Shown here one piece after another: positions 10,999 through 24,535 of a stretch of 64,000 nucleotides of DNA (the stretch's first letter is position 1; the number at the start of each line of letters is the position of its first letter). The DNA comes from an uncultured Chlorobiaceae bacterium (GTDB lineage: Bacteria; Bacteroidota; Chlorobiia; Chlorobiales; Chlorobiaceae): assembly GCA_903836465.1 (NCBI GenBank), contig CAILRB010000044.1:3816-67815 (forward strand), written 5' to 3'. Both the position numbers and the translations under genes were made by a program. Below the pieces are notes generated by a model, which was not told where the DNA came from, searched no databases, and saw nothing but the letters and a program-made list of their open reading frames with translations.

Positions 10999-11317
10999 GC
11001 TGCAAAAAAGGGCAAAAAAAGTGTTATGGAGAAAAAGACGCTGCTTTTTTTTTGAGCCTGCGCCTTCTCCAATATAACAAGCATTACCAACAGTTACTTT
11101 GTGGTAAAATGTTTTACGATTGGATGGTTCATAATATGATTTCTTTTTGGATGACTACTTAAGCCTTTGCCCGGTTTTTTTCCTTTGGCCGTAATCATGT
11201 ATCTTGTTGTCATAAGTTTCAATTTCTGAAAAGCTTCAAGAGGCGCATCATGCCCACTCGTTTTCAGGGATTTCACTAACGAATAGGTTCTATGACCACT
11301 TCGGGAGGAGTTGGCGA

Positions 11318-12127
11318 ATGACATGCAACAAAGAGCTCATCGGCCTTGAAGGCTCAGTCTGGTTTCAGAAGGCCGAGAACAGGTTTCTCGGAGGCGACCG
11401 GATTGCATTACTGGAAAAAATCGATGAGCTTGGCTCAATCAGCAGCGCTGCAAAAGCTGTCGGCATCAGCTACAAAACGGCATGGCATTTGGTCAACATG
11501 ATGAATAATCTATCCGAACAGCCTCTGGTTGACCGCGTAACAGGCGGAAAAGGTGGGGGGGGGACCCTGTTGACCAAAGAGGGGAAAAAAGTTATCGAAC
11601 AGTTCCGTGTTGTTCAGGAAGAGCACCGGAAGTTTCTTGAGAATCTGGGAGATCGTCTCGGAGAGAGCAATCATCTTTATCAATTTCTTAAAAGAATAGC
11701 TATGAAAATCAGTGCACGCAACATTTTTTCCGGTACGGTGGAAAAAATCATCAAGGGAGCAGTTAATTCTGAAGTTGTCCTTCTGCTCAATGGAGGAAGC
11801 CGTATTGTCGCCATTATCACCAATGGTTCGGTTGATAATCTGGGACTTAAGGAAGGCTTGAATGCTTATGCCATCATCAAGGCAAGCTCAATTATTATAG
11901 GCCAGGAGCTGCACGAGGCAAAAATAAGTACACGCAATATTTTGCCAGGCATAATCAGCAAGCTTATTGAAGGACCGGTCAGTACTGAAGTTGATGTGGA
12001 AATTGGTGGCGGGAATGTCATTTCTGCTGTTATTACCCATGGCAGTTCAGAAAAAATGTCATTGAAAGAGGGCGACCATGCCTGCGCAGCATTCAAGGCC
12101 TCAAGCGTCATCATCGGGATAAGCTGA
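11318..12127 (+). CDS. modE: Molybdate-responsive regulator (winged HTH plus two TOBE/Mop domains)
   Basis: GSISSAAKAVGISYKTAW, GGKGGGGT, and two KISARNIF/KISTRNIL...IKASSI TOBE repeats. Confidence 0.92.
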   Translation: MTCNKELIGLEGSVWFQKAENRFLGGDRIALLEKIDELGSISSAAKAVGISYKTAWHLVNMMNNLSEQPLVDRVTGGKGGGGTLLTKEGKKVIEQFRVVQEEHRKFLENLGDRLGESNHLYQFLKRIAMKISARNIFSGTVEKIIKGAVNSEVVLLLNGGSRIVAIITNGSVDNLGLKEGLNAYAIIKASSIIIGQELHEAKISTRNILPGIISKLIEGPVSTEVDVEIGGGNVISAVITHGSSEKMSLKEGDHACAAFKASSVIIGIS

Positions 12128-12184
12128 GCACGCATAAATCTTAAAAAGATTCAAGATTTTTTTTGGAAATTTGCAGAAATATGG

Positions 12185-12198
12185 TTAACAATCGTTAA
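12185..12198. promoter_or_regulatory. TTAAC-N4-GTTAA palindrome (candidate CRP/FNR-family site)
   Basis: TTAACAATCGTTAA, 24 nt upstream of the leader ATG; a near-identical copy lies at 24621. Confidence 0.45.
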
Positions 12199-12222
12199 TG
12201 CTTAACCGAAAACATTTGACTT

Positions 12223-12303
12223 ATGAATTCAGGAACTTCTAAAACTTTCACGACGTGCTGCTGCTGTTGCCGATGGTCACACCATTCTGACACAGGAATA
12301 TAG
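12223..12303 (+). CDS. Poly-cysteine leader peptide (26 aa)
   Basis: Hand translation: MNSGTSKTFTTCCCCCRWSHHSDTGI*; codons TGC TGC TGC TGT TGC at 12256-12270. Too short for the ORF track. Confidence 0.85.
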   Translation: MNSGTSKTFTTCCCCCRWSHHSDTGI

Positions 12304-12351
12304 GGGAAGAAGATAGTTACTCATATCATTTCATGAAGTACCAAGTCTTGC

Positions 12352-12383
12352 AACCGGCTCTGAGTGTCAGAGTCGGTTTTTTT
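12352..12383 (+). terminator. Attenuator intrinsic terminator
   Basis: AACCGGCTCTGA-gtg-TCAGAGTCGGTT stem (one G-U pair) followed by a T-run ending at 12383, located before the first structural gene. Confidence 0.85.
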
Positions 12384-12420
12384 ATTTTTAATTAGATTAT
12401 CAACAATAAACTTATAACTC

Positions 12421-12894
12421 ATGTCAACAAGAGCAACAACAACATGCACAGGCATACCATTACCAATAGTCAAACTGAATCGTATAGTTTTGCTCATTGG
12501 CATCATTGCCGCCATTGTGTTCCAGCAACCAATGGTGACCACCGCACTTTTTGTTATAATTCTTTCCGCTGTAGTTTTTGGTAAAAACGGCAGCCTTATT
12601 TTTTTCATCGGCTCACGCCTTTTTGCCAAGCAAAACATGACTGCTGAAAGTGAAGATCCGAGACTCATGCGATTCAACAACTCTATTGCGACTATTCTGC
12701 TCGGAGGAGCCCAGATCGCCTTCCTTTCAGGCAAACCTCTTGTCGGCTGGATCCTTTCCGGGATGGTTGCTGTTGCAGCCACCATAGCGCTTGCAGGCTT
12801 CTGCTTCGGTTGCTTCCTGTTCTACCAGTTCAAGCTGCAACGCTTCAAGCTTTTTGGAAACAGGGCGCAGATCAACGAACAAAAAACTGCCTAA
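12421..12894 (+). CDS. DUF4395-like membrane protein
   Basis: Four hydrophobic segments, EDPRLMRFNN and the C-terminal LAGFCFGC motif characteristic of DUF4395. Confidence 0.8.
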   Translation: MSTRATTTCTGIPLPIVKLNRIVLLIGIIAAIVFQQPMVTTALFVIILSAVVFGKNGSLIFFIGSRLFAKQNMTAESEDPRLMRFNNSIATILLGGAQIAFLSGKPLVGWILSGMVAVAATIALAGFCFGCFLFYQFKLQRFKLFGNRAQINEQKTA

Positions 12895-12937
12895 AATTTA
12901 TCGTAAACATCACCAATTAATAAAGGAGAGTATGTAA

Positions 12938-14239
12938 ATGAGTTCAGAAAACTATCGCTTTGAAACGCTTGCCCTGCACGCAGGCCAGCCTGTTGACGCA
13001 ACACTCTCGCGTGGAGTGCCGGTTTACCGCACCACCTCCTATCTTTTCAAGAGCACCGAACATGCAGCAAACCTTTTTGCACTGAAGGAGCTTGGCAATA
13101 TCTATACCCGGCTGATGAACCCCACAACCGATACTTTGGAGCAGCGGGTCACTCAGCTTGAAGGGGGCGCAGCCTCGGTTGCTGTCGCTTCGGGCACTGC
13201 CGCAATTTTTAATACGATCATTACTCTCGCAGAAGCAGGCGACAACATCGTTTCTGCCAACAACCTTTACGGCGGAACCTACACCCAGTTCGATGCCATC
13301 CTTCCGAAATTTGGCATCAACGTCACCTTTGTTGATCCCAAAGATCCTGCCAATTTTGAAAAGGCAATAACAGAAAAAACAAGAGCTCTTTTCATTGAAA
13401 CCATCGGCAATCCGGTTCTTGACTATACTGATGTCAAGGCCATTGCCGAGGTAGCACACCGTAACGGCTTGCCGCTGATTGTCGATGCCACCTTCACCAC
13501 TCCTTACCTGCTTAAAACGATTGACCTTGGAGCTGATATTGTGATCAACTCCCTCACTAAATGGCTTGGCGGCCATGGCGCAGGAATAGGCGGCATTATT
13601 ACTGATGCCGGACGTTTCAACTGGAATGGGGGACGCCACCCGCTCTTTACCGAGGCAGACAATAATTACCACGGTCTACGCTGGGCCATTGACCTTCCGG
13701 AACCTCTTGCTCCAATAGCATTCGCCCTCCGCTTCCGCACGGTGCCACTGAGGAATCTCGGTGCTTGCATTGCGCCTGACAATTCATGGATACTGCTGCA
13801 AGGCATTGAAACTCTCCCTGTCAGGATGGCCCGTCATTCAGAAAATGCACTCAAGGTTGCCGAACATCTTGCAAAACACCCCGGAGTTGCATGGGTTCGT
13901 TATCCCGGTCTGAAAAATGACCCCTCTTACCCTAAAGCTTCAAAAGATTTGAAGAACGGGTTTGGCGGCATGGTTGTCTTTGGAGTAAAGGGTGGTTACG
14001 ATGCTGCCGTGGAGATTATCGACAACATCAAACTCTTCTCACACCTGGCCAATGTTGGCGATGCCAAGAGCCTGATCCTCCATCCGGCAAGCACCTCGCA
14101 CAGCCAGTTGACCGAAGAACAACAACTGCAGAGTGGTCTTTCACCTGACCTGATACGCCTCTCCATCGGCCTTGAACATCCTGACGACCTGATCGAAGCC
14201 CTTGATGAGGCGCTTCAGAGAGTGGCAACAAAACCGTAA
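12938..14239 (+). CDS. metY: O-acetylhomoserine aminocarboxypropyltransferase / OAH-OAS sulfhydrylase
   Basis: FETLALHAG, GNIYTRLMNPT, PLP lysine SLTKWLGGHG, HLANVGDAKSLILHPASTSH. Confidence 0.92.
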   Translation: MSSENYRFETLALHAGQPVDATLSRGVPVYRTTSYLFKSTEHAANLFALKELGNIYTRLMNPTTDTLEQRVTQLEGGAASVAVASGTAAIFNTIITLAEAGDNIVSANNLYGGTYTQFDAILPKFGINVTFVDPKDPANFEKAITEKTRALFIETIGNPVLDYTDVKAIAEVAHRNGLPLIVDATFTTPYLLKTIDLGADIVINSLTKWLGGHGAGIGGIITDAGRFNWNGGRHPLFTEADNNYHGLRWAIDLPEPLAPIAFALRFRTVPLRNLGACIAPDNSWILLQGIETLPVRMARHSENALKVAEHLAKHPGVAWVRYPGLKNDPSYPKASKDLKNGFGGMVVFGVKGGYDAAVEIIDNIKLFSHLANVGDAKSLILHPASTSHSQLTEEQQLQSGLSPDLIRLSIGLEHPDDLIEALDEALQRVATKP

Positions 14240-14241
14240 CC

Positions 14242-14895
14242 ATGAAAAACGAATACAAGAACATTTCTGTCATTCTTGCTGATACCCAGTATTTAACCAA
14301 TGAAGCGATACACGCCATGTTGAGGCCCCTTTTCCATACCTTCTATACCGTATCGACAAAGGCCGATCTGCAAGAGTATCTGCAAAAGGAGACCATCTCG
14401 CTCATCATCACCGATGATCTCCTTTTCGATTTTGATTCAATCAATGATCTTGCTGATCTGAGAAAAAAGCACCAGGAGACAGGAATCGTTGTGTTGACAA
14501 ACTCCTTGACAAATGTAAAAATCAAGGAATTAAATGATATCGGCATCAGAAATATTGCACTGAAAACCGATGATCGCGAAGAGATTTTTCATGCTGTTGA
14601 CGCTGCACTGAAAGGAAAGAAATATTATTCTGGAAATGTTCTGGATATCCTTTTGAAAAAAGAGACCCCTTATGAAGATGCCAGTATTCTGACCTCTTCA
14701 GAAATCGAAATAGTTCGCATGATTTCCGGCGGTTTGTCAACAAAAGAAATTGCTACAAAACGGCATATCAGTTTTCATACCGTCATGACTCACAGAAAAA
14801 ACATTTTTCGCAAACTCGGCGTTTCAAGCAGTCCGGAACTGCTCATGTATGCCATAAAAGCGGGATTGATCGACAATATTGAATACCATATCTGA
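14242..14895 (+). CDS. NarL/LuxR-family response regulator
   Basis: REC-like N-terminus (ILAD, IITDD, VLTN, ALK) and LuxR HTH LTSSEIEIVRMISGGLSTKEIA...TVMTHRKNIFRKLGV. Confidence 0.9.
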   Translation: MKNEYKNISVILADTQYLTNEAIHAMLRPLFHTFYTVSTKADLQEYLQKETISLIITDDLLFDFDSINDLADLRKKHQETGIVVLTNSLTNVKIKELNDIGIRNIALKTDDREEIFHAVDAALKGKKYYSGNVLDILLKKETPYEDASILTSSEIEIVRMISGGLSTKEIATKRHISFHTVMTHRKNIFRKLGVSSSPELLMYAIKAGLIDNIEYHI

Positions 14896-14897
14896 CC

Positions 14898-14945
14898 ATA
14901 CCCTGTTTATGGTATATCAGATGCCTGTTTAACGGGATTTATAAT
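14898..14945 (+). promoter_or_regulatory. Candidate cysK promoter with two 18-bp quasi-palindromes and a TATAAT -10
   Basis: ATACC-CTGTTTAT-GGTAT (14898-14915), ATGCC-TGTTTAAC-GGGAT (14921-14938), TATAAT at 14940-14945. Confidence 0.45.
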
Positions 14946-15001
14946 TATGTATTTATTAACGATGTTGAAGGTCATTACAACCACCTAAACAATCAACAGC
15001 T

Positions 15002-15955
15002 ATGGGACGTATTGCAAAAAAATTGACCGATCTTATCGGAAACACACCTCTTCTTGAGCTTGGAAATTTCAATCGTGAACATGATGCCCTGGGCACGATT
15101 ATTGCGAAACTTGAATACTTTAACCCTGGGGGAAGTGTCAAAGACCGTATTGGTTTTTCAATGATCGACAAGGCTGAAAAAGAGGGCTTGCTGAATAAAG
15201 AGAGCATCATCATTGAGCCGACAAGCGGCAATACCGGTATTGCCCTGGCGTTTATCGCTGCAGCGAAAGGATACCGCCTGATACTCACCATGCCTGAAAC
15301 CATGAGTCTCGAACGCAGGAATCTGCTCAAGGCGCTTGGCGCAGAGCTGGTGCTGACACCTGGCCCTGAAGGAATGGTCGGAGCCATCAGAACTGCCGAT
15401 GAACTGCACTCGGAATATCCAAATTCTTTTGTTCCGCAACAGTTCAAAAACCTTGCAAATCCTGAAATTCATCGCAAAACAACGGCAGAAGAGATCTGGA
15501 ATGATACTGACGGAAAGGTTGATTTCTTTGTCAGCGGGGTAGGCACGGGCGGTACGATAACCGGTGTTGGTGAGGTACTCAAAGCGCGGAACCCTGAGGT
15601 AAAAATTGTTGCTGTTGAACCATTCGATTCACAGGTTATTGCCGGCGGTAAACCTGGACCACACAAAATACAGGGTATCGGCGCCGGTTTTGTGCCGGAT
15701 ATTCTTAACACCTCCATTATCGATGAAATTATCCCGGTTAAAAATGAAGATGCCCTTCGTACCGGCCGAAAACTGGCCAAAACCGAAGGACTTATTGTGG
15801 GTATTTCTTCCGGCGCAGCCGTTTATGCCGCTTTACAGCTTGCACTGCGTGAGGAAAACAAGGGCAAACGAATTGTCGTCATCCTGCCGGATACCGGAGA
15901 GCGGTACCTCTCCACGCTGCTCTACCAGTTTGACAGTGAACCAGTCAATATTTGA
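15002..15955 (+). CDS. cysK: Cysteine synthase A
   Basis: [41 protein letters not shown]. Confidence 0.97.
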
Positions 15956-16006
15956 ACATAATTTTATCAATACGGAGCACCATCCGACAGAGGGAGATTA
16001 TTACTA

Positions 16007-16921
16007 ATGCAGACCAACAACGGCGATATCATTGAAGAGGCGATCAAGCTTTTATCGAGCCCTGCTGATGATAGTGAAGGTGACTATTCCGGGCAGCACG
16101 AATATCTGCTGCCCTCTATTGAAAAGCTCAAAGAGATTGTCGAACTCCTCAGGTCAATACTCTTTCCTGGGTATTTCGGCGGACCCGTATTGCGTCGCCA
16201 GTCGCTTCAACATTTTCTCGGTGTCAGGGTTGAAAAACTTTACGGATTGCTTGCTGAACAGATTCTCAGCGTTCAGCATTTCGACATAGAAAACAACAGT
16301 GCTGCCAATGCTTCAGAAAAAGCCGCCGAAGTTACCCGCCAGTTCATCGGAATTCTTTCGGAGATCAGGAAGAAATTATGGACTGACGTCAAGGCCATCT
16401 ACGACGGAGACCCGGCGGCAAAAAACTATGGTGAGATCATCTTCTGCTACCCTTCCATCAGGGCAATGGTCAACTACCGCTCAGCTCACACCCTGCTGTC
16501 GCTTGGCGTGCCCCTGATTCCGAGAATTATTACTGAAATGGCCCATTCGGAAACCGGGATTGACATTCATCCCGGCGCTCACATCGGAGACTATTTTTCA
16601 ATTGATCATGGCACCGGTGTCGTCATCGGTGAAACCTGCATTATCGGCAGCCACGTCCGACTCTACCAGGGAGTCACCCTTGGCGCAAAGAAGTTTGCTC
16701 TCGATGAACACGGCAACCCGGTCAAGAATCTGCCGCGCCACCCAATTATTGAGGATAACGTCGTCATTTACTCAAACGCCAATATTCTTGGCAGAATAAC
16801 CATCGGCAAAAACTCTGTTATCGGTGGCAACGTGTGGCAGACAAAAAGCGTACCGCCCAATTCAAGAGTTTTGCAGCAGATCGCCGTTGAAAGCAGTTTT
16901 ACCGACGGCCTCGGCATTTGA
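16007..16921 (+). CDS. cysE: Serine O-acetyltransferase (EpsC/SrpH-like long form)
   Basis: GDPAA, GIDIHPGAHIG...IDHGTGVVIGET hexapeptide repeats, LYQGVTLG, RHPII. Confidence 0.93.
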   Translation: MQTNNGDIIEEAIKLLSSPADDSEGDYSGQHEYLLPSIEKLKEIVELLRSILFPGYFGGPVLRRQSLQHFLGVRVEKLYGLLAEQILSVQHFDIENNSAANASEKAAEVTRQFIGILSEIRKKLWTDVKAIYDGDPAAKNYGEIIFCYPSIRAMVNYRSAHTLLSLGVPLIPRIITEMAHSETGIDIHPGAHIGDYFSIDHGTGVVIGETCIIGSHVRLYQGVTLGAKKFALDEHGNPVKNLPRHPIIEDNVVIYSNANILGRITIGKNSVIGGNVWQTKSVPPNSRVLQQIAVESSFTDGLGI

Positions 16922-16964
16922 AAGATCACGTTAATTGTTCACCTTTAAACCATTGAATTAACCC

Positions 16965-18419
16965 ATGAACGCACAACCCGAATCAAACAGTTATCTCCAG
17001 CGCAGCGTGACAACCCATGTGGCGAGAAATCTGGCCAATACGACCAAGACTCCTCCCCAGATGAACTCCATAACCCCGAGGTGGCTCCTGAAGCTGCTCC
17101 CGTGGGTTCACGTCTCTTCTGGTACCTATCGCGTTAACCGGACAAAAATTGAGCTCCAGAAACCCGAACGTATCGGCATCGATTTTCATGACGGCGTTGC
17201 CTCGTTCAGGCCTGATGCGCTGAAAAGCATTCCGCTGTTTGCATCATTTGACAACGAAGTTATTGGTCAGATTGCAAAAAAGTTTGTGCTTGAAGAGGCC
17301 GAACTTGGCAACACGCTTATTCTTGAAGGCGAAGAGCGCCATAAAATCTTCATTATAGCACACGGGCAGGTTGAAATTTTAAGCAAGGGACTTCATGGAG
17401 AGGATCTCCGTATCGCCCTGCTTTCGGAAGGAGAATATTTCGGTGAAGAGGAGCTTGTTTCAGAGAAACCCTCCTCGGTCACTATCCGTACCATCACTCC
17501 AGGCTCGTTTTTTTCCTTATCCAGCGTTGATATCGAAAAGCTGTTCAGGGAATCGCCATCATTGAAAGAGTCATTTCAGAATACGGTTGAAGAGTACCTC
17601 AAAATACGCTCTACCGTCAACAAACACGGTGAAAAACATATTGACCTTATTGCCGGATTCGAGGAAAATGTCGAAATCCCGGAAACCTATGTTGATTACT
17701 CAAACAAACCGCGCGAATACTCGCTGCAGGCCATACAGACTGTCGTGCGCGTCCATACACGAGTCTCCGACCTCTACAACGAACCCTTCAACCAGATCGA
17801 GCAGCAGATGCGCCTGACGATCGAGGGCATCAAGGAGCGTCAGGAGTGGGAGTTCATCAACAACAGAGAGTTCGGCCTGCTCCACTCTGCCGACCCCGGA
17901 CAGCGCATCAGCACCCGCTACGGAACTCCGACCCCGGATGATCTTGACGATTTGCTTACCAAAGTATGGAAAAAACCGGCATTCTTTATTGCTCATCCCA
18001 AAGCAATTGCGGCCTTCGAACGCGAATGCACCTGGCGCGGCGTTCCTCCGCCGACGATCAACCTTTTTGGAACTCCAGTCCTGACCTGGCGCGGTGTTCC
18101 TCTTGTTCCATGCGACAAGCTTGAAATCAACAAAAACAGCAAATCCGGCCATGGCACAACCAATATCATCCTTGTTCGTGTCGGTGAAAATGAACAGGGT
18201 GTGGTTGGACTGCACCAGGCAGGGATCCCCGGAGAGATCAGTCCAAGCCTTTCTGCAAGACTGATGGGACTCGACAAACTCGGCGTCGCTTCCTACCTGC
18301 TGACCCTCTACTCATCACTGGCCGTACTGACTGATGATGCTCTCGCGATACTTGAAAATGTCGAAGTGGGCTACTATCACGATTACGAACATCGCACCTC
18401 CGGAACCAAAGTAAAATAA
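16965..18419 (+). CDS. Family 2B encapsulin shell protein (SrpI-like HK97 fold with inserted cNMP-binding domain)
   Basis: SrpI hallmarks ARNLANTTKTPPQM..ITPRWLLKLLPWV, DY..KPREY.L, RVHTRVSDLYN.P, ERQEWEFINN..FGLL, DDLDDLL.KVWKKP, WRGVPL.PCDKL, VGENEQGVVGL. cNMP domain at about aa 85-200 (IPLF...HGQVEI...GEYFGE). Confidence 0.93.
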   Translation: MNAQPESNSYLQRSVTTHVARNLANTTKTPPQMNSITPRWLLKLLPWVHVSSGTYRVNRTKIELQKPERIGIDFHDGVASFRPDALKSIPLFASFDNEVIGQIAKKFVLEEAELGNTLILEGEERHKIFIIAHGQVEILSKGLHGEDLRIALLSEGEYFGEEELVSEKPSSVTIRTITPGSFFSLSSVDIEKLFRESPSLKESFQNTVEEYLKIRSTVNKHGEKHIDLIAGFEENVEIPETYVDYSNKPREYSLQAIQTVVRVHTRVSDLYNEPFNQIEQQMRLTIEGIKERQEWEFINNREFGLLHSADPGQRISTRYGTPTPDDLDDLLTKVWKKPAFFIAHPKAIAAFERECTWRGVPPPTINLFGTPVLTWRGVPLVPCDKLEINKNSKSGHGTTNIILVRVGENEQGVVGLHQAGIPGEISPSLSARLMGLDKLGVASYLLTLYSSLAVLTDDALAILENVEVGYYHDYEHRTSGTKVK

Positions 18420-18439
18420 AAGAACTCTTTGACAACCCG

Positions 18440-18470
18440 TCATGGCAGGCTTTCAACGTGTCTGCCATGA
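18440..18470 (+). other. Intergenic stem-loop between the shell and cargo genes
   Basis: TCATGGCAGGC-tttcaacgt-GTCTGCCATGA, 11-bp stem (one G-U pair), no U-tract. Confidence 0.6.
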
Positions 18471-18488
18471 ATTCACAATTGTTATACT

Positions 18489-20375
18489 ATGCCAGGAGCA
18501 TATCAACATCCGAACATCACAGGAGCCGAAAGCGAATCGCTGAATCCGACCTTTATTGCGCAACTTGCAAGCCGTCTCTTCAATGAACTCCCTGAGGCAG
18601 AAAACGTCCCGAGAAGTGAAGGTGATATCTCGGAAGCGCCATCTGCTGTAGCCAACACTTTCCATGATAAAACAACATTCGTCGGCACACAGGATCCCGT
18701 GGATTTCTCCTCCAGTGCCGCTTCAGCGATCCCGGTACACGATTTCTATTTTCTGCCGCACGCTCAAGAAAAAGAGCCGGAACCACTTGAACACCATGCC
18801 AATAAACTGACCGAACAGCAGAACTATTCAGAGAGTGAAAAGGGATCGAATGGTCTTGACCAGCTTTTGCGGCGTTCACTGCCTGTACAGACTGATGAGC
18901 ATGAATGTTACGCAGAAAAGCTCTACAGGGAGTTCACCGGGCAACAGGGCAGTCCCGTCATGGAGGTCGTTTTTCAGGCTCTTCGCGGTAGCGCCGAATC
19001 GCCTGCTCAGCCGGGCTTTGATCGATTACCCGTTACTCAACCTGAGTCTCCAGGAAAAGCGCCAGCTCCGGTCTCGCCAAACAGCGCCTTCAGCATCCCG
19101 GATTCTTACGCAGAGCCTTACTATTTCCTGCGTGAACCGCAACAGCCTATCCATCAGACAGAAGGATTTGATGTAACCACCATTCGCAAGGATTTTCCGG
19201 TCTTGCGTCAGTTGGTTCACGGCAAACCGCTTGCCTGGTTCGACAACGCCGCCACAACGCAAAAACCCCTGAGCGTCATCAACGCTGTAGCGCACTTCTA
19301 CGCCACGGACAATTCGAACATTCATCGCGGCGCACATACCCTTGCCGCTCGCGCCACCGATGCTTACGAAGGCGCACGCGAAAAGATCAGGCAGTTTATC
19401 GGCGCTGGCTCAACCTCGGAAATCATCTATGTCAGGGGCACTACCGAGGGTATCAACCTTGTGGCACAAACCTGGGGAAGAAAGTTTCTCCAGCCGGGCG
19501 ATGAGATTGTGCTCTCCATTCTTGAGCATCATGCCAATATCGTTCCGTGGCAGATGGTAGCCCAGGAGAAAGGAGCGCGCATCAAGGTGATCCCGGTCAA
19601 CGATCGGGGCGAAATCATCCTTGAAGAGTACACCAAACTGCTTGGGCCACGCACGCGCCTGGTCTCACTGACACAGGCTTCGAACGGTCTTGGAACCATT
19701 CTGCCTGTCAGGGAGATGATTCAACTGGCCAAACGCTATGACGCCAGAGTGCTTGTTGATGGAGCCCAGTCCGTTGCCCACATACCGGTCAATGTGCAGG
19801 ATCTCGATGCCGACTTTTTTGTCTTTTCAGGCCATAAAATCTTTGCTCCGACAGGTATCGGTGTGGTCTATGGCAAAAAAGAGCTGCTTGAGGTAATGCC
19901 GCCATGGCAGGGCGGCGGAAACATGATCAAGGATGTACGTTTCGAAGAGACCATTTACAACGAAGCCCCGGCAAAATTTGAGGCTGGAACGCCCTCAATC
20001 GGAGACGCCATCGGCCTTGGAGCTGCTCTTGATTACGTGCGCAAAATAGGTCTTGAAAACATTGCGCAATACGAGCACGAACTGACCGAGTACGGCACTG
20101 AAAAGCTGATTCGCATTCCCGGTCTGCGTCTGATTGGCACCGCAAGAAACAAGGTGGGCGTGCTCTCTTTTGTGCTGAACAATCTGCCCAACGAAGAGGT
20201 TGGCAAGCTGCTCGACCGCGAAGGCATTGCCGTCCGGGCCGGGCACCACTGCACCCAGCCATCGTTGCGCCGCTTCGGTGTTGAGGGAACCGTACGACCG
20301 TCGCTGGCCTTCTACAACACGAGAGATGAAATTGACCGGCTGGCTGATGTGATCAACCATATTCAGCGGAGATAA
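18489..20375 (+). CDS. SufS-class cysteine desulfurase with ~225-aa disordered N-terminal encapsulation domain
   Basis: FDNAATTQKP, EHHANIVPWQ, PLP motif FSGHKIFAPTG, catalytic RAGHHC. The Pro/Ser/Glu-rich extension contains IAQLASRLF, FYFL and PYYFL. Confidence 0.93.
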   Translation: MPGAYQHPNITGAESESLNPTFIAQLASRLFNELPEAENVPRSEGDISEAPSAVANTFHDKTTFVGTQDPVDFSSSAASAIPVHDFYFLPHAQEKEPEPLEHHANKLTEQQNYSESEKGSNGLDQLLRRSLPVQTDEHECYAEKLYREFTGQQGSPVMEVVFQALRGSAESPAQPGFDRLPVTQPESPGKAPAPVSPNSAFSIPDSYAEPYYFLREPQQPIHQTEGFDVTTIRKDFPVLRQLVHGKPLAWFDNAATTQKPLSVINAVAHFYATDNSNIHRGAHTLAARATDAYEGAREKIRQFIGAGSTSEIIYVRGTTEGINLVAQTWGRKFLQPGDEIVLSILEHHANIVPWQMVAQEKGARIKVIPVNDRGEIILEEYTKLLGPRTRLVSLTQASNGLGTILPVREMIQLAKRYDARVLVDGAQSVAHIPVNVQDLDADFFVFSGHKIFAPTGIGVVYGKKELLEVMPPWQGGGNMIKDVRFEETIYNEAPAKFEAGTPSIGDAIGLGAALDYVRKIGLENIAQYEHELTEYGTEKLIRIPGLRLIGTARNKVGVLSFVLNNLPNEEVGKLLDREGIAVRAGHHCTQPSLRRFGVEGTVRPSLAFYNTRDEIDRLADVINHIQRR

Positions 20376-20385
20376 CTAGGAACTC

Positions 20386-20426
20386 TTCAAAACGCAACGT
20401 TGATCATGAAAATGTTGCGTTTTGAA
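20386..20426. other. Inverted repeat downstream of the desulfurase
   Basis: TTCAAAACGCAAC (20386-20398) / GTTGCGTTTTGAA (20414-20426), perfect 13 bp; possible terminator or processing site. Confidence 0.55.
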
Positions 20427-20488
20427 AAGAAAGAGAAAAATAACGGTTATCTTTTGTCTGATTTTTTCCTGAAAGCAAAACAGATTTC

Positions 20489-21628
20489 ATGCAGTTTGAA
20501 ACCCTTGCCATCCATGACGGACAAGCACCTGATCCCCAAACCGGCTCTGTAACCGTTCCTGTTTACCAGACCTCCACCTTCGGGCGCGACAGCCTCGACG
20601 AGCGCAATGAGTTTTTTTATTCTCGAATCGGCAACCCGACACGGAAAGCGCTTGAATCAGCACTTGCGCTCCTTGAAAATGGCAAGTACGGTCTCGCCTT
20701 TGCCTCTGGAGTGGCGGCAACCATGGCGGCGCTGCAGGTGCTGAAACCCGGCGACCACATTGTTGCGGGCAACGACATTTACGGCGGAAGCTACCGCATT
20801 TTCGAGCAGCTCCTGAAACCATGGGGCGTTACCACCAGCTATACCGAAAGCGAAGCAACCGAGAGTTATGAAGCCAGCATAACACCGGCGACGAAGCTGA
20901 TCTGGATTGAAACCCCAAGCAATCCGCTGCTCCAGCTCTCCGACATCAGGGCGCTTGGCAAGCTTGCCAAAGAGCGTGGGATCTTGCTTGCAGTGGACAA
21001 CACCTTTGCCAGTCCCTATTTCCAGCGGCCACTTGAGCTTGGCGCCGACATTGTCGTGCACAGCACCACCAAATACCTCGGCGGCCACAGCGATGTCATT
21101 GGCGGCGCCGTGGTAACTTCAAACACGGCGATACACACCACCATCAAAAACTATCAGGGCGCAGCAGGGGCAGTACCCGGCCCCTGGGACTGCTGGCTTA
21201 TTCTGCGCGGTTTGAAAACGCTGAAAATCCGCATGAAGGAGCACGAAGCAAGCGCAATGCACCTTGCCGAAATGCTTGAACGCCATCCTGCTGTGGAACG
21301 GGTCTTTTATCCTGGCCTTGCCTCGCACCCGCAGCATAAACTGGCAAAAGAGCAGATGAGCGGGTTTGGCGGCATGGTGACCTTTGCCTTGAGCGGTGGC
21401 CTTCCGGCCGTCGAGCGGTTGATCGCGAAAATCAAATTCTTTGTACTGGCCGACAGCCTTGGCGGGGTGGAGTCGCTCATCTCCTCGCCAGCAAAAATGA
21501 CGCTCTGGGCGCTTTCACAGGCTGAGCGGGAGCGGAGAAAATGTACCGACAACCTGGTACGACTCTCTGTCGGGCTTGAAAATGCGACTGATCTTGAGGC
21601 TGACCTCCTGAACGCCCTTGAGCCATAA
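20489..21628 (+). CDS. Cystathionine gamma-synthase/lyase family PLP enzyme (trans-sulfuration)
   Basis: [48 protein letters not shown]. Confidence 0.92.
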
Positions 21629-21903: not shown

Positions 21904-22680
21904 ATGGATTCATTGCAGATCGGCTCGTATACTTTTTCTTCACGCCTGATTCTTGGAACAGGAAAATTCAGCAACTCAACGGTAATGCTTGAGGCCGTGA
22001 GGGCCTCAGGTACACAACTCGTGACCGTAGCGTTGCGACGCTTCAACCGCGAACAGGCGGAAGATGACCTTTTCGGCCCCTTATCGGCCATTGAGGGAAT
22101 AACGCTCATGCCAAATACTTCTGGAGCTTCAACCGCTGCAGAGGCTGTCCGTGCGGCCCATATCGCCCGCGAACTCTCGGGAAGCCCCTTTATCAAGGTG
22201 GAAATTCATCCGAACCCGCAGCACCTGATGCCTGACCCCATTGAAACCTATGAAGCTTGCCGGATTCTGGCACAAGAGGGGTTCTTGGTGATGCCCTATA
22301 TTGCCGCAGACCCTGTACTGGCCAAGAGGCTTGAGGAAGTTGGCTGCGCGTCGGTGATGCCGCTCGGTTCGGCTATCGGCAGCGGACAGGGGCTTGCAAC
22401 GTCGGAGATGCTCAACATTATCATCCGTGAAAGCGGCATTCCGGTTATTGTCGATGCCGGTCTGCGCTCCCCTTCCGAGGCGGCGCACGCCATGGAGATG
22501 GGATGTGAAGCGGTACTGGTGAACAGCGCCGTAGCAGCAGCAAGCAACCCGCCTGCAATGGCAGAGGCTTTCGCGGAGGCTGTTGCAGCGGGAAGAAAAG
22601 GATTCAGGGCCGGGCTGATGCAGAAAAGCGGTTCCGCTGTGGCCACAAGCCCACTCACCTCTTTTCTGGGAACATGCTGA
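21904..22680 (+). CDS. thiG: Thiazole synthase
   Basis: [42 protein letters not shown]. Confidence 0.96.
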
Positions 22681-23768
22681 TGACAACTTTACCGGAATGG
22701 CTTTCCGACAATCGTGGCACTACAGCCCTTGCCGCCATGCTGTCACCTGCATCATCACAATCCATTGAAACTCTTGCCGCTGAATCGAGAGCAATCACCC
22801 TGCGACGTTTCGGACGCACGATGACGCTCTACGCCCCGCTTTACCTCTCAAACTACTGTTCAAGCGGCTGCGCCTACTGCGGCTTTGCTTCCGACCGAAA
22901 GACGCCGCGCCATCGTCTTGAACCTGATGAGATCCGACGGGAACTGGGCGCAATGAAAAAACTTGGCATCAGCGATATTCTTCTGCTCACTGGCGAGCGT
23001 ACCGCCGCTGCCGATTTCGACTATCTTCAGAGGAGTGTTGCCATCGCGGCTGAGGAGATGCCGCGAGTCTCGGTTGAGGCTTTTCCGATGAGCGTCAGCG
23101 AATACAGGGCACTTGCCGACTGTGGCTGCACCGGTATCACCATCTACCAGGAGACCTACAACCGCGAACGCTACGAAACACTGCACCGCTGGGGCCCGAA
23201 AAAAGATTTTATCGCCCGCCTGGAAACTCCTGCCCGCGCGCTTGAAGGGGGAATAAAAACCGTCGGGCTCGGGGTACTGCTCGGTCTTTCCGATCCGGTT
23301 GAAGATGCCCTGAGCCTCTATCGCCATGTTCGACACCTCGGGCGCACGTACTGGCGTGCCGGTATGACCGTATCGTTTCCACGCATGAGACCACAGACCG
23401 GCGGTTATGAGCCACCTTTCCCGGTTGACGATCACCTTCTCGCAAGAATAATCTTTGCCTTCCGCATTGCTCTTCCCGATACGGAACTGGTGCTCTCAAC
23501 GAGGGAGAGCGCGAACTTCCGTGATGGAATGGCGGGACTTGGAATTACCAGAATGAGCATCGAGAGCAGAACCACTGTTGGAGGATATTGTGAGAGTGAG
23601 AACGAAGAGAGCAAGGAGAGAACAGACAAGGGGCAATTTGAAATATCTGATAACCGCTCTGCCAAAGAGTTCTGTGCTGCTCTGCGCCGCCAGAATATTG
23701 AGCCGGTCTTCAAAAACTGGGAACTCTCCTATAACGGCCCGTCATCCAACATAAAACTGGCAATGTAA
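22674..23768 (+). CDS. thiH: 2-iminoacetate synthase (radical SAM)
   Basis: [51 protein letters not shown]. Confidence 0.94.
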
Positions 23769-23785
23769 CCAGAAAAAGAACAACC

Positions 23786-24535
23786 ATGCCACTGAACAAC
23801 ACCCTGAACGACAGCCAGCGCGAACGTTACGCCCGCCATATTACACTGCAGGAGATCGGCGAAAAGGGACAGGTGAAGCTGCTCAAGGCAAAAGTACTGG
23901 TCATCGGCGCCGGTGGACTCGGTTCCCCGGTCGCCTTTTATCTCGCTGCAGCAGGAATAGGCACCATCGGCCTCATGGATGGTGACAAGGTTGATCTCAG
24001 CAACCTTCAGCGACAGATTCTACACACCACCGACTCAATCGGAAAAGATAAGGTCACCTCTGCAAAACAACGGCTTCTCGACCTTGATCCTGACTTGAAG
24101 CTCACCCTCTACCCGTTCCGGCTCAACGCTGACAACGCACCGGAGATTCTATCGTTGTATGACTTCATCATTGACGCCACCGACAACTTCGACTCGAAAT
24201 TCCTGATATCAAGAGCCTGCCACGATGCAGCAAAAGCCTGGTCCCACGCAGGGATCAAAGAGTTCTATGGCCAGACCATGACCGTCCACCCCGGAACTTC
24301 CACATGCTACCATTGCCTCTTCCACGAAGCGGGAGTGCCAGCCGCCAGCATCCCGAAAGGCCCACTCGGTGCAGTACCCGGCATTATCGGCTCCATCCAG
24401 GCCACGGAAGCCATAAAAAACATCCTCACCATTGGCACGCCACTCATCAACACGTTGCTGACCTGCGACACCCTCACCATGACCATCCGCAAAATCCCCC
24501 TTCACCGAAACCCAACCTGCCCTCTCTGCTCCTAG
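23786..24535 (+). CDS. thiF: ThiF/MoeB adenylyltransferase
   Basis: RYARH, VIGAGGLGSP, DLSNLQRQ, CYHC and CPLC Zn motifs. Confidence 0.9.
   Translation: MPLNNTLNDSQRERYARHITLQEIGEKGQVKLLKAKVLVIGAGGLGSPVAFYLAAAGIGTIGLMDGDKVDLSNLQRQILHTTDSIGKDKVTSAKQRLLDLDPDLKLTLYPFRLNADNAPEILSLYDFIIDATDNFDSKFLISRACHDAAKAWSHAGIKEFYGQTMTVHPGTSTCYHCLFHEAGVPAASIPKGPLGAVPGIIGSIQATEAIKNILTIGTPLINTLLTCDTLTMTIRKIPLHRNPTCPLCS

Follow-up and report, generated by a model that had tools for sequence, protein, structure and literature searches.

In a 64,000-nucleotide stretch of DNA from an uncultured freshwater green sulfur bacterium of the Chlorobiaceae (hereafter the window, which always means the whole stretch), we examined a short open reading frame (ORF) with five tandem Cys codons that is followed by an intrinsic terminator and a string of cysteine and sulfur genes, all on the forward strand. 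This leader is very probably a ribosome-mediated transcription attenuator of the leader-peptide type, which senses cysteine through charged tRNA-Cys and controls the downstream operon for cysteine synthesis and sulfur mobilisation. An earlier note, made from this DNA alone, had proposed the logic of the trp and his attenuators applied to cysteine, and this logic is supported by the conserved in-frame Cys run, the covarying terminator, and the cysteine/sulfur genes downstream. We are equally confident that the leader belongs to a conserved, previously undescribed family of cysteine-sensing transcription attenuators in Chlorobium that uses a known kind of mechanism, and propose the details of its antiterminator and of a second helix at its start codon (H1) with more modest assurance. 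All steps of the mechanism are drawn from sequence, comparison, and folding.

Leader ORF and Its Conservation

The leader ORF (MNSGTSKTFTTCCCCCRWSHHSDTGI; 12223-12303) has 26 codons, from an ATG to a TAG at 12301-12303, and its proposed sensing site is the run TGC TGC TGC TGT TGC at 12256-12270. Both had been described in the earlier note, and reading the ORF at these positions bears them out. No other in-frame run of five Cys codons occurs in the 64 kb of the window, and the run is not a chance feature of a 26-codon intergenic ORF.

One genome per GTDB species was scanned with the DUF4395 protein, which is encoded by the first gene after the leader, and this gave 80 loci. In 47 of them, DUF4395 is preceded at 150-200 nt by a small ORF that carries 3-7 tandem Cys codons, with a terminator after the ORF; all 47 are Chlorobium-like, and Chlorobium sp. 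KB01 and Chlorobium ferrooxidans DSM 13031 are among them. A scan of metagenomes, which required three Cys codons and a terminator stem and left the loop and the distal leader free, returned a further 55 loci: 35 with the same kind of leader (referred to as family 1), 13 with a second leader family described below, and seven chance matches. Cys runs upstream of DUF4395/metY in related genomes, which the earlier note had suggested looking for, are thus found in genomes and metagenome contigs alike.

The family-1 set used here consists of 66 sequences, i.e., the window and 65 further sequences in which the ORF, the Cys run, and the terminator occur together. The start ATG is kept in 65 of the 66 (the remaining one has GTG). 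Loss of the Cys run from relatives would have spoken against cysteine sensing; it was looked for, and the run is conserved and in frame in 66/66 sequences. It comprises 3, 4, 5, 6, or 7 codons in 10, 19, 31, 5, and 1 sequences respectively, its length changes are whole codons, and TGC and TGT alternate within it. The geometry of the leader is also kept, consisting of the ATG, 11-12 codons, the Cys run, about 15 codons, and a stop within a conserved GTAAC or GTAGC. A usual leader has 30-31 codons with Cys at codons 12-16, and its terminator follows 35-40 nt past the stop.

Compared with these relatives, the window leader is a derived short form and an atypical copy of the family. Its TAG at 12301-12303 is premature, lying in ATATAGG where relatives have ATATCGG, so that a C-to-A change ends the ORF five codons early (26 vs. 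30-31 codons). A similar early stop is seen in the leader of one other locus (L109).

Outside the 66 sequences, four Chlorobaculum-like loci (L040, L043, L051, L060) carry a leader that has diverged and has no more than 2-3 Cys codons, (S/T)CCR(N/C)M...NPDTLN, and retain CCTGACA ... TGTCAG elements and a GCCGGTTCTGATTGTCAGCACCGGC terminator; other Chlorobaculum loci, and most Chloroflexi loci likewise, are without a leader. A second group of DUF4395 paralogues (L056, L061, L062, L080) has a different terminator, GCCGGATCATGACATCAGTGATCCGGC, and short upstream ORFs that end in a conserved ..GRNR stop, some of which contain Cys or Met codons. Cys-rich short ORFs are also present upstream of DUF4395 in two GC-rich Chloroflexia loci, ..GVCCCACLRLGMCCM.. 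in L076 (about 2090-2400) and ..PCHCCACTRLAAC.. in L078 (about 2660-2806), the former followed by a hairpin plus T-run. These two may be independent cysteine leaders.

Terminator and Proposed Antiterminator

The intrinsic terminator, AACCGGCTCTGA-GTG-TCAGAGTCGGTT, occupies 12352-12389, with a stem of 12 pairs (12352-12363 / 12367-12378), six of them G-C, and a 3-nt GTG loop. Its T-tract begins within the 3' arm at 12377, runs to 12383, and continues after a single A as TTTTT to 12389; the terminator ends about 38 nt upstream of DUF4395. The T-tailed terminator reported earlier at 12352-12383 is therefore borne out, with a 12-bp stem and a T-tract that extends to 12389. A consensus terminator scan of 11000-20000 found it (12352-12378) as the single strong terminator, and it is present in all predicted folds of the window leader. 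With RNAalifold on 47 sequences, the terminator is the sole consensus fold, with compensatory changes in five pairs, and across the 66 family-1 sequences, counted as 65 distinct ones, it is 98.5% paired. In the family-1 alignment, its lower stem varies freely, but hardly any change is seen in the loop UGU and the upper stem, which implies a third pairing partner for the loop and upper stem.

That partner is proposed to be the distal leader. The earlier note had pointed to a complementarity between ATTCTGACAC (12284-12293) and GTGTCAGAGT (12364-12373), and these do form 10 bp including flanking A-U and G-U pairs, around a core of 8 nt (12286-12293 / 12364-12371) that a repeat finder recovers as perfect. 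Because we estimate that about 0.6 such perfect 8-nt complements are expected by chance in some 290 nt, the match is not significant alone in one sequence. In the window, the helix extends to 13 bp with one bulge, formed by the strands X (ACCAUUCUGACAC, 12281-12293) and X' (GUGUCAGAGUCGGU, 12364-12377), the latter comprising the terminator loop and almost all of the 3' arm; in the family, the X core is UUCUGACA, and its eight core X:X' pairs are 93% paired. Adjacent to X at 12294-12306 lies a strand Y (AGGAAUAUAGGGG in the window, GGAUAUCGG in the family), whose partner in the relatives is the terminator 5' arm. X and Y together make a bipartite duplex predicted by RNAduplex, in which leader AUUCUGACA-AAA-GGA-U-AUCGG pairs with CCGGU-UCU-GAA-UGUCAGAA; its partners are the terminator 5' arm, loop, and upper 3' arm, and X:X' is its outer half. 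The duplex is essentially the same in most of 47 sequences (mean -19.6 kcal/mol, z -2.9 vs. shuffles), and is 91.3% paired, compared with 24-49% when the partners are slid. The proposed antiterminator is thus conserved, but it is longer than first described and bipartite, and also uses the terminator 5' arm. In the window itself the inner half is degenerate: the C-to-A change that created the early stop weakens Y, leaving just AGG:UCU plus 2 bp predicted, and coincides with the longer, 13-bp outer helix.

The support for the antiterminator comes from conservation and complementarity rather than from covariation. Its covariation does not exceed that of shuffles, a shortfall we attribute to the near invariance of both strands, and the only compensatory change is GACAC/GTGTC to GGCAC/GTGCC in two loci (L055 and L097), where an A-U pair involving the loop becomes G-C. 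Of these two elements, it is the terminator that provides a covarying stem of the kind that the earlier note had suggested looking for in related genomes. Conservation in the X+Y region is alike at codon positions 1, 2, and 3 (0.88, 0.84, and 0.86), which indicates that the RNA, and not the peptide, is under constraint here. Y:Y' corresponds to the classical 2:3 element, holding the 5' arm before the 3' arm is made. For a classical region 1, which would lie beneath the stalled ribosome and pair with Y, we found only weak and inconsistent candidates of 4-5 bp (columns 47-50:103-106; the Cys codons with GGCAGC). An all-against-all covariation scan gave columns 99:175 as its top pair outside the terminator, and we rejected this pair as a phylogenetic correlation without helical neighbours.

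Ribosome Position and the Choice of Fold

We folded growing transcripts with a 30-nt ribosome footprint set as unpairable. In the window, a ribosome on the Cys codons gives the X helix a probability of 0.78-0.98 at transcript ends 12370 and 12373, and the terminator 0-0.02. A ribosome on the stop codon at 12301 gives the X helix a probability of 0, and the terminator 0.02 at 12370 and 0.78 at 12373. Both halves of the earlier argument, that a ribosome stalled on the Cys codons leaves 12286-12293 free for the antiterminator and that one reaching the stop covers this segment and permits termination, are thus borne out in silico. The same trend is seen across the family (66 sequences, alignment column 192), where the antiterminator and terminator have probabilities of 0.60-0.68 and 0.09-0.10 with the ribosome on the Cys codons, and of 0.03-0.08 and 0.44 with the ribosome on the stop codon. 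Folding of both conformers 3' of the stalled ribosome, which had also been recommended, shows them to be nearly isoenergetic in the window (X conformer -26.8, terminator conformer -27.2 kcal/mol); the family means are -27.1 for the antiterminator and -34.2 kcal/mol for the terminator.

From these results we propose the following sequence of events. Transcription would start just past a conserved promoter/operator-like motif (12162-12198), and a ribosome would follow RNA polymerase closely while translating the leader (12223-12303). A shortage of Cys-tRNA would stall this ribosome within 12256-12270 and keep the distal leader free (12281-12293, plus GGAUAUCGG in relatives). The emerging terminator 5' arm, loop, and upper 3' arm would then zip onto the free leader strand in the order in which they are made, and because they would pair with a strand that already exists, the terminator hairpin could not nucleate. 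Read-through would extend into DUF4395, metY, cysK, cysE, the encapsulin gene, and the later genes of the string. With ample Cys-tRNA, the ribosome would reach the stop and at the decisive time cover X in the window or the nucleating CGG of Y in relatives; the 12-bp terminator would form, and transcription would end at about 12379-12389. The early stop of the window sets the terminating ribosome squarely over X.

A Helix at the Start Codon

A further helix, H1, which was absent from the earlier note, is predicted to sequester the start codon of the leader. In the window, the start-codon region ACUUAUGAA (12219-12227) pairs with a block UUCAUGAAGU (12330-12339), which can alternatively form a local hairpin with 12316-12322; this helix has 9 bp (-6.1 kcal/mol, z -0.5). 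In the family, ACUYAUGAAAUCA pairs with UGAUUUCAUGAAGU, which lies past the stop codon and ahead of the terminator. Most of the 66 sequences show this pairing in RNAduplex, at a mean energy of -12.0 kcal/mol (z -2.6) that reaches -20 in some. H1 is 84% paired, seven of its pairs are altered on both sides (e.g., AAAUC/GAUUU to AAUUC/GAAUU), and its covariation is above that of all shuffles (0/500). Since H1 and the antiterminator cross, they cannot share a nested fold.

H1 would probably stop further translation of the leader, or lock untranslated transcripts into the terminating fold. For trp, too, the leader ribosome-binding site is reported to pair with a segment downstream. The spacing from the AUG to the Cys run is about one ribosome footprint, so that, as a speculation, a second ribosome queued behind the stalled one could hold H1 open in starvation.

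A Second Leader Family and a Possible Cysteine Regulon

The second leader family consists of 13 metagenome loci (L085, L088, L090, L094, L099, L102, L105, L106, L114, L115, L116, L125, and L128). Its leader (e.g., MSTLYERNALSAGSCCCQIMECVTIRKSGSC; pattern ..SCCCQIMEY..KSGSC) lies upstream of an sbp-cysT-cysW-cysA operon encoding a sulfate ABC transporter, whose sbp binding protein is 95% identical to proteins named Chlorobium sp. The N-terminus of this leader is unrelated to that of family 1, while the Cys run is kept and the terminator is homologous. Its predicted antiterminator pairs GGAA..UCCGG with CCGGUUCC of the 5' arm and is the homologue of Y:Y'; a pairing of UCCGGUUC with the 3' arm was considered and rejected, as folding pairs GGAA..UCCGG with the 5' arm instead. 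The family has two subtypes, with L085 and L116 resembling transitional forms towards family 1, and further upstream of the family-2 leaders there are direct repeats (TATGGTAT).

With this sister family in front of the sulfate transporter genes, a small regulon for cysteine is implied. As a broader scenario, offered tentatively and as a reasonable possibility, freshwater Chlorobium from sulfur-poor settings, including the cultured photoferrotrophs C. ferrooxidans and KB01, may run a cysteine "ribulon" of at least two operons, one for cysteine synthesis plus a desulfurase encapsulin and the other for the sulfate ABC transporter, with their own poly-Cys leaders, a homologous terminator/antiterminator module, and a shared upstream core of the TTAACAATCGT type. 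The module would be unusual in two respects: the antiterminator would zip onto the terminator's 5' arm, loop, and 3' arm successively as these are synthesised, and the covarying start-codon helix would be held open only by a ribosome queued behind the stalled one. If true, an operon with a family 2 encapsulin would have a proposed regulatory mechanism for the first time.

In the cultured strain C. luteolum DSM 273 (L136, CP000096.1 1740703-1747710), neither a poly-Cys leader nor a terminator was found before sbp. There, metY-RR-cysK (RR, response regulator) is immediately followed by sbp-cysTWA, and TGGTAT repeats and a TTA..CG..TT.AA-like box are present.

Alternative Explanations

Several observations weigh against cysteine-responsive attenuation as proposed here. 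The leader ORF has no Shine-Dalgarno sequence, and the public RNA data are uninformative on transcription start, leader translation, 3' ends, and a cysteine response: the public runs contain the organism of the window as DNA only, and a search for RNA runs of C. ferrooxidans found none. In the full-length transcript the terminator prevails in every ribosome state (probability 0.86-0.96 at equilibrium), so that the switch must be kinetic, as is expected of an attenuator whose outcome is decided kinetically. With no ribosome, the antiterminator still forms in the intermediates (probability about 0.4 in the family; in the window 0.66-0.84 at ends 12370 and 12373, with the terminator at 0-0.20), and untranslated transcripts may therefore not terminate efficiently. 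In the relatives, the stop lies about 24 nt beyond X, and a terminating ribosome covers just the 3' end of Y. To these points is added the lack of covariation beyond shuffles in the antiterminator. The folding energy of the whole leader is also ordinary (z -0.56 and -1.42, single sequence), and as these values are not significant they were kept out of the evidence. Contigs of relatives from two metatranscriptomes, with depths of 33-35 over the leader and 4.5-7 over DUF4395, were set aside as strain-mixed and possibly DNA; compared with L002, they gave nothing.

Some of these points would fit a leader that senses cysteine but whose stalled or queued ribosomes act through H1, Rho, mRNA stability, or translational coupling to DUF4395, with X:X' being a by-product of conservation. 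H1 covaries and the antiterminator does not, the terminator is dominant at equilibrium, and the poly-Cys small ORFs (sORFs) of mycobacteria act on translation rather than termination. We nevertheless consider such an output unlikely, since the near-invariant loop UGU and upper stem imply a third partner, the loop change of L055 is compensated in the leader, and family 2, whose leader is independent, again has this pairing with the 5' arm; moreover, a strong covarying terminator stands 38 nt before DUF4395, which has no Shine-Dalgarno sequence to sequester. It is less probable still that the terminator is controlled by a riboswitch or a protein-binding RNA, responding to a sulfur metabolite or bound by the response regulator of the operon, and that the ORF is incidental. 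In its favour, the nucleotides of the X+Y region are conserved, the leader is without a Shine-Dalgarno sequence, and there are a conserved operator upstream and a regulator gene within the operon; but an incidental ORF would not explain the ATG in 65/66 sequences, a Cys run that stays in frame through whole-codon length changes and TGC/TGT alternation, or a second leader that keeps this run behind an unrelated N-terminus. There is also no Rfam match, and no conserved multi-helix aptamer is predicted.

The remaining two explanations treat the ORF or the hairpin as separate from the downstream genes. Cys-rich peptides exist, and a conserved short ORF with its own terminator could encode a functional micropeptide (metal- or sulfur-binding, or a RiPP precursor) on its own small transcript. 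This seems very improbable given that the N-terminal part of the peptide is poorly conserved (0.69-0.81), its Cys count ranges from 3 to 7, its C-terminal conservation is equal at all codon positions, and the stop of the window has moved five codons with the RNA elements intact; the 38 nt between the T-tract and the next gene also leave little room for a separate promoter, and the invariable partners are Cys and sulfate genes. Hardly credible, finally, is that the hairpin is no more than the terminator of the modE-like gene upstream, with the poly-Cys ORF placed by chance in the 3' untranslated region (UTR) of that gene, even though modE is upstream on the same strand in most loci and one metatranscriptome contig joins modE to the leader. 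In the window modE has its own hairpin plus T-run at 12136-12164, the leader and terminator persist in 15 loci with no modE found and in two with modE inverted, and elsewhere the same leader and terminator precede cysK or sbp.

Relation to Known Systems

An Rfam cmscan of 11000-14000 with E up to 10 gave only chance-level matches, none of them on the leader strand; the comparison included the His, Trp, Leu, and Thr leaders, SAM riboswitches, T-box, and Chlorobi motifs, with no match. We found no account of the element in the literature on Chlorobi/Chlorobium leader peptides, attenuation, and cysteine, in agreement with the earlier note, which was not aware of one described in Chlorobi; the survey of attenuation by Lopatovskaya et al. 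(2010; PMID 20198868), which covers Bacteroidetes/Chlorobi, may hold a prior prediction.

The enterobacterial attenuators of trp, his, leu, thr, pheA, and ilv are similar to the window leader in having a terminator before the first structural gene, an alternative helix, here a predicted one, that uses the terminator 5' arm and is set by ribosome position, and a more stable terminator, so that the choice is kinetic. The Chlorobi leader differs from them in its amino acid (cysteine) and phylum, has no sequence relation to them and no Shine-Dalgarno sequence, and its proposed antiterminator runs through the loop into the 3' arm, with no clear region 1 under the stalled ribosome. In Firmicutes, met and cys genes are controlled by S-box/SAM riboswitches and Cys T-boxes. 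These share with the Chlorobi leader the controlled functions (metY, cysK, cysE, sulfate uptake) and the terminator vs. antiterminator output, but their sensor is an aptamer or RNA-bound uncharged tRNA, not a translating ribosome.

For cysteine, the closest parallels concern actinobacteria, in which the earlier note had mentioned poly-Cys attenuators based on upstream ORFs (uORFs). Such leaders have indeed been predicted in Actinobacteria, without terminators (Seliverstov et al., 2005; PMC1262725), and the mycobacterial ones, which are leaderless sORFs, act translationally by sequestering a Shine-Dalgarno sequence (Canestrari et al., 2020; bioRxiv 10.1101/834739). Canestrari et al. (2020; 10.1101/834739) state that uORF-mediated cysteine attenuation had not been described before. 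Similar to the Chlorobi leaders, the mycobacterial sORFs have consecutive Cys codons before cysteine-metabolism operons, including cysK-cysE, and several operons share the signal (the "ribulon" idea). However, the mycobacterial sORFs are leaderless and have no terminator, and their Cys tract is C-terminal and base-pairs with the Shine-Dalgarno sequence of the following gene, whereas the Cys run of the Chlorobi leader is mid-ORF (codons 12-16 of 26-31) and a covarying terminator follows. As these two defining features are lacking, the Chlorobi element does not belong to the mycobacterial class.

A terminator is part of the uORFC-8-2 motif upstream of cysS in Rhodobacterales, a predicted attenuator (Brewer et al., 2021; PMC8632094). 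Like the Chlorobi leader it is predicted to be ribosome-mediated and has tandem Cys codons and a terminal U-run, and, as here, it is a prediction. Unlike the Chlorobi leader, it has only two Cys codons, which lie inside the first stem, it controls a cysteinyl-tRNA synthetase rather than biosynthesis or transport, and it is found in alpha-proteobacteria with an unrelated sequence.

In the literature that we found, cysteine is thus represented by a translational variant in mycobacteria and a predicted cysS motif in Rhodobacterales, and a terminator-based poly-Cys attenuator in Chlorobi would bring classical attenuation to a new pair of amino acid and phylum. Ribosome-mediated attenuation would then be used in a lineage whose leader, in the case studied here, has no Shine-Dalgarno sequence. 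Charged tRNA-Cys would also become the candidate inducing signal for a desulfurase encapsulin operon and for sulfate uptake in green sulfur bacteria of sulfur-poor, ferruginous, or boreal lakes, which are regarded as analogues of Archean photoferrotrophs. Sulfate assimilation by photoferrotrophs is documented (PMC5498476), and for related encapsulins both a response to sulfur starvation and the storage of sulfur have been described (PMC8049743, PMC10836720). Further, DUF4395, a membrane protein family without an assigned function, would be placed in a cysteine/sulfur regulon.

Gene Context and Upstream Motif

Based on Pfam and NCBIfam matches, and on a gene order conserved downstream of the leader, the controlled operon is taken to span 12421-21628. 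It encodes a DUF4395 membrane protein (12421-12894; no Shine-Dalgarno sequence), an O-acetylhomoserine/O-acetylserine sulfhydrylase (metY, 12938-14239), a LuxR-type response regulator (14242-14895), cysK (15002-15955), a cysE-like serine acetyltransferase (16007-16921), a family 2B encapsulin shell protein with a cNMP-binding domain (16965-18419), a cargo cysteine desulfurase (18489-20375), and a second Cys/Met PLP enzyme (20489-21628). Judged by these matches, the string reads as a cysteine-synthesis and sulfur-mobilisation cluster that is presumably co-transcribed. The closest DUF4395 proteins come from Chlorobiaceae.

The leader starts 95 nt past a ModE-like regulator gene (11318-12127), directly after which a weak AT-rich hairpin plus T-run (12136-12164) is probably that gene's own terminator. 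Among the family-1 loci, modE is upstream on the same strand in most, inverted in two, and was not found in 15, and the order DUF4395-metY-RR-cysK-cysE(-encapsulin) is kept where the upstream gene changes. As the leader persists when the upstream gene differs, it is assigned to the sulfur genes downstream of it. Its immediate downstream neighbour is cysK in L129 and RR-cysK-cysE in L086. The encapsulin pair is missing in some relatives (L091, L095, L119, and L127).

The motif mentioned above consists of TTTGGAAA (12162-12169), a spacer of 15 nt, and the palindrome TTAACAATCGTTAA (12185-12198). The palindrome is present in 63/66 family-1 loci, and the spacing is 15 nt in nearly all loci with both boxes (TTTGGAAA-N15-TTAACAATYGTTAA). 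Leaderless Chlorobaculum loci also carry the motif, with a spacing of 5 rather than 15 nt, i.e., one helical turn less. The motif at 12162-12198 is probably a promoter/operator that adds a second layer of control, and as it ends 24 nt upstream of the ATG, the 5' UTR may be short. A TTAACAATCGTGAA version of the motif precedes the family-2 leader.

Downstream, after a gap of 275 nt past the operon, thiG, a thiH-like gene, and thiF (21904-24535), which belong to the sulfur-requiring synthesis of thiamine, follow on the same strand.

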